Shown in pieces: positions 37,036 to 37,262 of a stretch of 64,000 bases of DNA. The first letter of the stretch is position 1. Each line of letters begins with the position of its first letter. The notes below the pieces were generated by a model that was given only the letters and a program-made list of their open reading frames with translations, had not been told where the DNA came from and searched no databases. Made by a program: the position numbers and the translations under genes. Where the stretch lies: assembly GCF_055900595.2 (NCBI RefSeq), contig NZ_CM148325.1. The stretch is one strand, 5' to 3'.

Positions 37036-37250
37036 AGTCAGCAGTGGGGGCAAATCACCTGCAAATAAACACGGCGCATGCTGGCGCGAATATCGCGGAT
37101 GCGTTCGAGGACAGAAGAACCGACAGGCGGATTCTTCAGTCGCTCATCGTCCATCACAAAACCTTTGATCAGGTATTCCTGAAGCCGATTAAATATTGAG
37201 CAGTAGAAAATATCTGGATTGACTGTATTACAAGGGGTTGGAGAACGTCA
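37036..37250 (-). pseudogene. Internal fragment of a RhuM-family gene abutting the selC 3' end
   Basis: Minus-strand translation gives ...SIFNRLQEYLIKGFVMDDERLKNPPVGSSVLERIRDIRASMRRVYLQVICPHC* with no usable start codon; the YLIKGF-DDERLK block resembles RhuM-family proteins found in selC islands (recalled, not searched). Confidence 0.35.
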
Positions 37251-37262
37251 GTAGAGGCAAAC

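Follow-up and report, generated by a model that had tools for sequence, protein, structure and literature searches.

A rhuM fragment beside selC in Escherichia coli is the known pseudogene yicT, very probably the inert relic of a gene that once followed this integration site

When gene debris lies at the 3′ end of a tRNA gene used by islands, is it the scar of an island that recently left that strain, or an older remnant that the strain shares with many others? This question is raised by the selC locus of the window, by which we mean the whole stretch of 64,000 nucleotides that was analysed. Here selC (tRNA-Sec, anticodon UCA) lies on the minus strand at 37263-37357 (ARAGORN; Rfam RF01852, 83.8 bits), and its last ~21-24 nt (37263-37286), known as partial copies from other strains, form the attachment core. 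A spacer of 639 bp (36624-37262), AT-rich with a GC content of 27.5-28.5% over 36700-36999, separates it from setC (35439-36623, minus strand), which bounds the spacer and is recognized as an MFS sugar efflux transporter from its 394-aa ORF, a Pfam MFS_1 match and the K-12 annotation. Within the spacer, on the strand of both neighbours, a preliminary description had pointed to a startless frame about 12 bp from selC that contains a RhuM-like block. The frame is there: beyond a TGA at 37250-37248, 69 codons stay open (37247-37041, minus strand), among them those for QEYLIKGFVMDDERLKNP at 37181-37128.

The resemblance to RhuM was likewise confirmed. Residues 121-171 of the intact 345-aa RhuM of E. 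coli LF82 align to 37184-37056 (tblastn, E=7e-22), with 41 of 43 residues identical around an 8-residue gap, and the translated open frame matches Pfam PF13310 (Virulence_RhuM), whose cut-off is 33.7 bits, with a score of 49.1 (E=6.1e-13). Such similarity to RhuM far exceeds chance. The match spans profile positions 50-98, only 49 out of 252, and real homology is confined to the 158 nt at 37028-37185, equivalent to nt 360-549 of the 1038-nt rhuM gene. Thus, of the region 37036-37262 that had been proposed as the RhuM fragment, the RhuM identity stands but 37186-37262 is a non-coding leader. The family HMM score is above the gathering cut-off; however, a complete PF13310 domain in an intact ORF is not what we found, as there is no start codon, 24-bp and 8-bp deletions interrupt the sequence, and the VPDYFDEM segment, invariant in the RhuM family, is deleted. 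The stretch 37028-37185 is a pseudogene fragment of the RhuM family and not a functional member of it.

The anatomy of the remnant can be read block by block along the minus strand. Next to selC lies the leader, hereafter X (77 bp, 37186-37262), which has ~80% identity to positions 1900-1981 of locus L005, from the divergent Escherichia strain E69 (blastn E=5e-13); it stays open for 21 codons, which equals chance expectation, and with 19% variable sites it varies more among E. coli alleles than any other segment. The end of X and nt 360-363 of rhuM have the tetranucleotide GCTT in common (37182-37185). Because the two alignments overlap on these four bases, the 5′ lesion reads as a deletion of ~400 bp from one GCTT to another. 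Lost with it would be the last ~40 bp of the leader and rhuM from its start codon through codon 119. Block 1 (37112-37185; CDS nt 360-433, aa ~121-145, LQEYLIKGFVMDDERLKNPPVGSS) is identical to LF82 rhuM at 71 of 74 nt and is joined by a 24-bp in-frame deletion to block 2 (37056-37111; CDS nt 458-513, aa ~154-171, LERIRDIRASMRRVYLQV), as alignment to intact rhuM indicates. That deletion removes VPDYFDEM, a motif without variation across 34 RhuM proteins from many genera. An 8-bp frameshift deletion separates block 2 from block 3 (37028-37055; CDS nt 522-549, aa ~175-183), which is out of frame and was recognized by alignments and by tblastn, where FAPTADSQPTV aligned with FALAADYQPSL in frame -1. 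The homology ends at 37028, and the 3′ half of rhuM is missing.

The rest of the spacer has two parts. For the 116-bp segment at 36912-37027 we detected no homologue: blastn gave no match in 84 loci, and similarity to the right arm of the rhuM units described below or to a partial selC copy was no better than in shuffled controls. The AT-rich region at 36624-36911 (minus strand, GC 27-36%) aligns with the sequence upstream of setC in Escherichia albertii (local alignment of window positions 36911-36615 with positions 6716-7009 of locus L089). These setC-proximal ~290 bp are accordingly setC upstream DNA shared with E. albertii, and no island debris. The spacer had been noted as AT-rich, non-coding and about 640 bp long; its length and base composition are as described, but this part of it is the 5′ region of setC itself. 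In E. albertii (L089, and L090 5928-7000), an IS1 ~375 bp upstream of setC joins that gene to kbl/tdh/rfa genes, and through this rearrangement setC is unlinked from selC. The E. albertii setC has 78.6% DNA identity and 89% protein identity to that of the window; the former value is below expectation for core genes of the two species. Two further sequences were tried as SetC outgroups and set aside, one (metagenome contig L092) because it appears to be a setB/setC chimera and the other (L093) because it is a different locus.

The remnant as a whole is already known. It is yicT (b4653), a pseudogene annotated between selC and setC in K-12 MG1655, and PGAP labels it 'rhuM, RhuM family protein, incomplete' in DH10B and in all the other genomes that we inspected. 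The window is collinear with K-12 (97.4% over 2.4 kb; for the spacer, 96.7% identity over 636 bp), and the fragment has the same position between selC and setC, the same strand and the same junctions. A literature search returned no paper on yicT or b4653 in E. coli. The spacer allele of the window is rare, with ≥99% identity in 15 of 4527 matching records, most of which are at 96.7%; its best matches are E400634, a Kenyan stool isolate, and RMDEC465.

What occupies the selC site is polymorphic among 5426 complete E. coli genomes: the full selC-setC spacer is present in 3617 (about two thirds), 844 are of the LF82 type discussed below, and the rest have other arrangements. The spacer is contiguous with selC in 2487 genomes, and by subtraction an island splits the two in the ~1100 remaining. 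In island-bearing genomes a partial selC copy of 21-30 bp is still joined to the X leader, so that the attachment core persists beside the spacer; we saw such copies in E400634, EC17CM2 and SC475. selC is still active as an integration site, and incoming islands displace the remnant away from it. One might therefore suppose, as the preliminary description implied, that the fragment is a strain-specific scar, left when a pathogenicity island at selC recently excised imprecisely, the more so as E400634, whose spacer is 100% identical to that of the window and thus the closest allele, has an island between selC and spacer that the window lacks. However, the deletion junctions are identical in K-12 and throughout the 3617 genomes, and where an island occupies selC the fragment is found unaltered beyond it, which means that the fragment is older than those islands. 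Recent excision is very improbable on these grounds. Of the earlier interpretation, the RhuM identity and an origin of the island type stand, and strain specificity falls; an identical sequence in all E. coli, K-12 included, had been named in advance as evidence for an ancestral spacer, and this is largely what the spacer and its junctions show. The remnant is an old fixed relic and no strain-specific scar. It is also a fixed landmark for the original chromosomal side of the integration site, and since yicT marks that side, selC islands can be delimited as running from selC up to the partial copy of selC ahead of yicT.

The search for att sequences also speaks against recent excision. When the last 24 and the last 16 nt of selC were searched with up to three mismatches, only selC itself and chance-level matches turned up across the 64 kb, so that the att-like repeats of the selC 3′ end that had been suggested as a check are absent from the window. 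Comparison of 36850-37030 with six right ends of rhuM units and islands likewise gave no relic of attR, with scores no better than those of shuffles. Neither an integrase ORF nor a remnant of one lies between selC and yicL, where annotations list only the truncated rhuM and setC. Of three features looked for in an island scar, presence/absence polymorphism among strains was found here, and a tRNA-end direct repeat and an integrase were not.

Does the remnant still do anything? The seven alleles examined all share the three deletion junctions and differ in their later lesions: K-12 and SC475 have an in-frame TAA stop, KOr021 a 1-bp deletion and EC17CM2 a 15-bp deletion, and the length of a poly-C tract varies as well. 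In a comparison based on six or seven alleles only, 6.5% of sites vary within the fragment, as against 6.0% for the AT-rich spacer and 4.1% for setC, and the fragment appears to be under no visible constraint. Its retention in thousands of genomes between two co-oriented genes, and a frame open for 69 codons in the window, could nevertheless be taken to mean that remnant or leader was co-opted, be it for a small protein (such as a 39-codon GTG ORF at 37157-37038), as a 3′-processing or terminator element of selC, or for the regulation of setC. Against this, the stop in K-12 and SC475, the frameshift in KOr021 and the deletion in EC17CM2 interrupt the sequence in separate lineages, and its variability is not below that of the spacer. 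We found no promoter-like site on the coding (minus) strand and fewer promoter-like sites than in shuffles, a single weak terminator-like hairpin at chance level, an unremarkable RNA fold for 37000-37262 (z=-1.0), and tRNA-Sec alone in Rfam at E≤1. We regard co-option as very improbable and infer from the sequence that the remnant is inert and non-functional today. It cannot supply RhuM function because both termini and the invariant motif are missing.

The source of the fragment is best seen by comparison with loci where rhuM is intact. In LF82-type genomes, which lack setC, a complete 345-aa rhuM (WP_001280585) starts 52 bp after selC. An AT-rich gene for a 165-aa hypothetical protein without family match occupies the place of setC there, and past its degenerate partial copy of selC, LF82 has a second, older rhuM remnant (L003 4974-5177, aa 166-245, E=7e-12). 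E69 also carries two rhuM generations. In this strain a homologue of X comes after a partial selC 3′ end and continues for another 40 bp before an ATG with the first 14 rhuM codons is reached, and so preserves the undeleted leader; the sequence at this junction of leader and rhuM start is TTCGGCTTAACCGAG. CUPF09 has an E69-like arrangement, with X matched at 100% query coverage. Both strains are divergent 'E. coli' with ~87% nucleotide identity to E. coli in this region and without setC, and in both a gene for a fliB-like flagellin lysine-N-methylase (E69, L005 2061-3278; CUPF09, L094 6214-7428) lies between yicL and the rhuM that is cut after codon 14. An undeleted order of selC, X, intact rhuM and setC was not found, and a distant search with the E69 leader and rhuM start returned CUPF09 only.

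From these comparisons the ancestral arrangement can be reconstructed as selC, X leader, rhuM, further sequence, setC and yicL. We hold it very probable that yicT is the inert fossil of a rhuM that was once the first gene downstream of selC, pointed in the same direction, and decayed in place. It most likely descends from selC-integrated DNA, with which the ancestral rhuM would have arrived, and the term 'relic of selC-integrated DNA' suits it, because repeated arrival of rhuM at selC is documented by LF82 and E69. In the inferred order of events, the deletion between the two GCTTs would have beheaded the gene, and the 24-bp in-frame deletion would then have stripped VPDYFDEM; the 8-bp frameshift deletion and the loss of everything beyond ~codon 183 would complete the ruin. 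These lesions would be older than the diversification of the remnant-bearing E. coli lineages. Since then the remnant has decayed further under neutral drift, each lineage acquiring an additional stop, frameshift or deletion of its own.

Identity to intact rhuM is uneven, at 96%, 86% and 71% for blocks 1, 2 and 3 respectively, as might be expected if the fragment were a mosaic patch copied by recombination from the rhuM of an incoming island. However, the junctions are common to all alleles, and such a gradient is expected from ordinary conservation, because block 1 is the most conserved stretch of rhuM DNA in all genera, with 93% identity even to Morganella. The mosaic origin is extremely improbable, and decay in place is the reading that we retain.

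The association of rhuM with selC is not confined to E. coli. A scan with LF82 RhuM, using one genome per species, gave 80 close relatives at 66-98% identity. A tRNA-Sec gene lies upstream of rhuM on the same strand within 6 kb in 24 of the 80 loci, and in 17 of them within 900 bp and without an intervening gene (L003, L014, L022, L027, L028, L029, L032, L037, L038, L056, L060, L064, L066, L071, L075, L076 and L079, where rhuM begins at about 6001 and selC lies 150-900 bp upstream). The genera with a selC-linked rhuM include Escherichia, Pseudescherichia, Huaxiibacter, Enterobacter, Raoultella, Pantoea, Erwinia, Hafnia, Proteus, Morganella, Providencia and Photorhabdus. The sole other tRNA gene seen near rhuM was tRNA-Leu(CAA), twice. 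Thus, in a dozen or more genera of the Enterobacterales, the gene that comes first after selC is habitually rhuM, a link between RhuM and tRNA-Sec for which our literature search returned no paper. In Serratia symbiotica (L061 6001-7026), a rhuM homologue with five in-frame stops is another, independent pseudogene.

Some of these intact genes sit in short units. In LF82, E69, Pseudescherichia vulneris, an Erwinia MAG and Hafnia paralvei, rhuM lies without an integrase in 1.2-1.6 kb bounded at both ends by repeats of the selC 3′ end, in the order selC (or a partial copy), rhuM, a conserved arm of ~110 bp and a partial selC copy (L003 5262-6480 in LF82, L005 213-1899 in E69 and L027 5752-7157 in P. 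vulneris; downstream of rhuM in L014 and L075). The arm motif CATTTGGGGGT.CTTATGGGGGTTACTCATTTATCC also ends the large CP4-like selC island of E400634 (L002 3699-3747). Elements flanked by att sites that lack integration and transfer genes are called CIMEs, a class defined for derivatives of ICEs in Firmicutes (PMC6323972), and the rhuM units of these five genomes do keep attL and attR with no integrase or transfer gene inside. It is conceivable, although we would put it forward only tentatively, that rhuM with its ~110-bp arm is a candidate CIME-like mini-island that could depend for its movement on integrases from larger selC islands bearing the same arm, and that would repeatedly deliver one candidate defence gene to selC across the Enterobacterales. 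yicT would then be the oldest of at least two layers in Escherichia, because LF82 and E69 each hold an intact copy and an older remnant. This reading concerns intact rhuM copies elsewhere and not the window, and as a comparative by-product it may merit a short follow-up.

The cargo itself has a putative role. In PADLOC, intact LF82 RhuM is matched by the model of PDC-S05, a candidate defence family (E=3.1e-173), and the RhuM family is reported to be overrepresented around type I restriction-modification loci (PMC9881135). In four loci of Enterobacter type (L030, L031, L034 and L035), a SymE-like ORF (MIMADSHSTPDTDQSGTERS...) lies ~60-400 bp upstream of rhuM, and L007 (783-6000) has the order selC, integrase, hsdM, hsdS, rhuM. 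Such SymE-like and hsdM-hsdS neighbours fit a defence-island context for RhuM. By sequence, neither the PDB nor NCBIfam gave a relative of intact RhuM, and AlphaFold2, given an alignment of 34 sequences, produced a poor model (pLDDT 55, pTM 0.34). As a candidate defence protein RhuM is widespread and highly conserved, and neither a solved structure nor a mechanism is known for it. In itself yicT matters little, being an annotated pseudogene of the best-studied bacterium that is present in most E. coli genomes.

The remnant can be set beside several known systems. The gene order of the Salmonella island SPI-3 was reportedly described by Blanc-Potard et al. in 1999. With the RhuM of that island and the PF13310 family at large, the window fragment shares a score above the Pfam cut-off, but it retains only 49 of the 252 positions, without a start and with deletions and a frameshift; SPI-3 is, like the islands considered here, a selC island, and it carries rhuM (PMC3680342). 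The likeness to PDC-S05 belongs to the intact protein, as LF82 RhuM fits the model and some rhuM loci include hsdMS or a SymE-like gene as a neighbour; however, PDC-S05 is a candidate family only, the defence activity of RhuM is putative, and the window remnant cannot encode the protein. Similarly, the intact units of LF82, E69 and P. vulneris resemble CIMEs in keeping attL (selC) and attR (partial selC) with rhuM alone between them, whereas the window fragment has no attR and the mobility of the rhuM units is itself only putative. The LF82 rhuM differs in being complete, in having another leader, and in being followed by the ~110-bp arm, the degenerate partial selC copy and the older remnant in a chromosome without setC, but it occupies the same chromosomal position in the same orientation and agrees with the window at 41 of 43 residues over the retained part. 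Closest is the yicT of K-12: the window allele lacks its in-frame TAA and differs from it at ~3% of positions and by a few indels, yet locus, strand, neighbours and all three deletion junctions are the same, and the two are orthologues.
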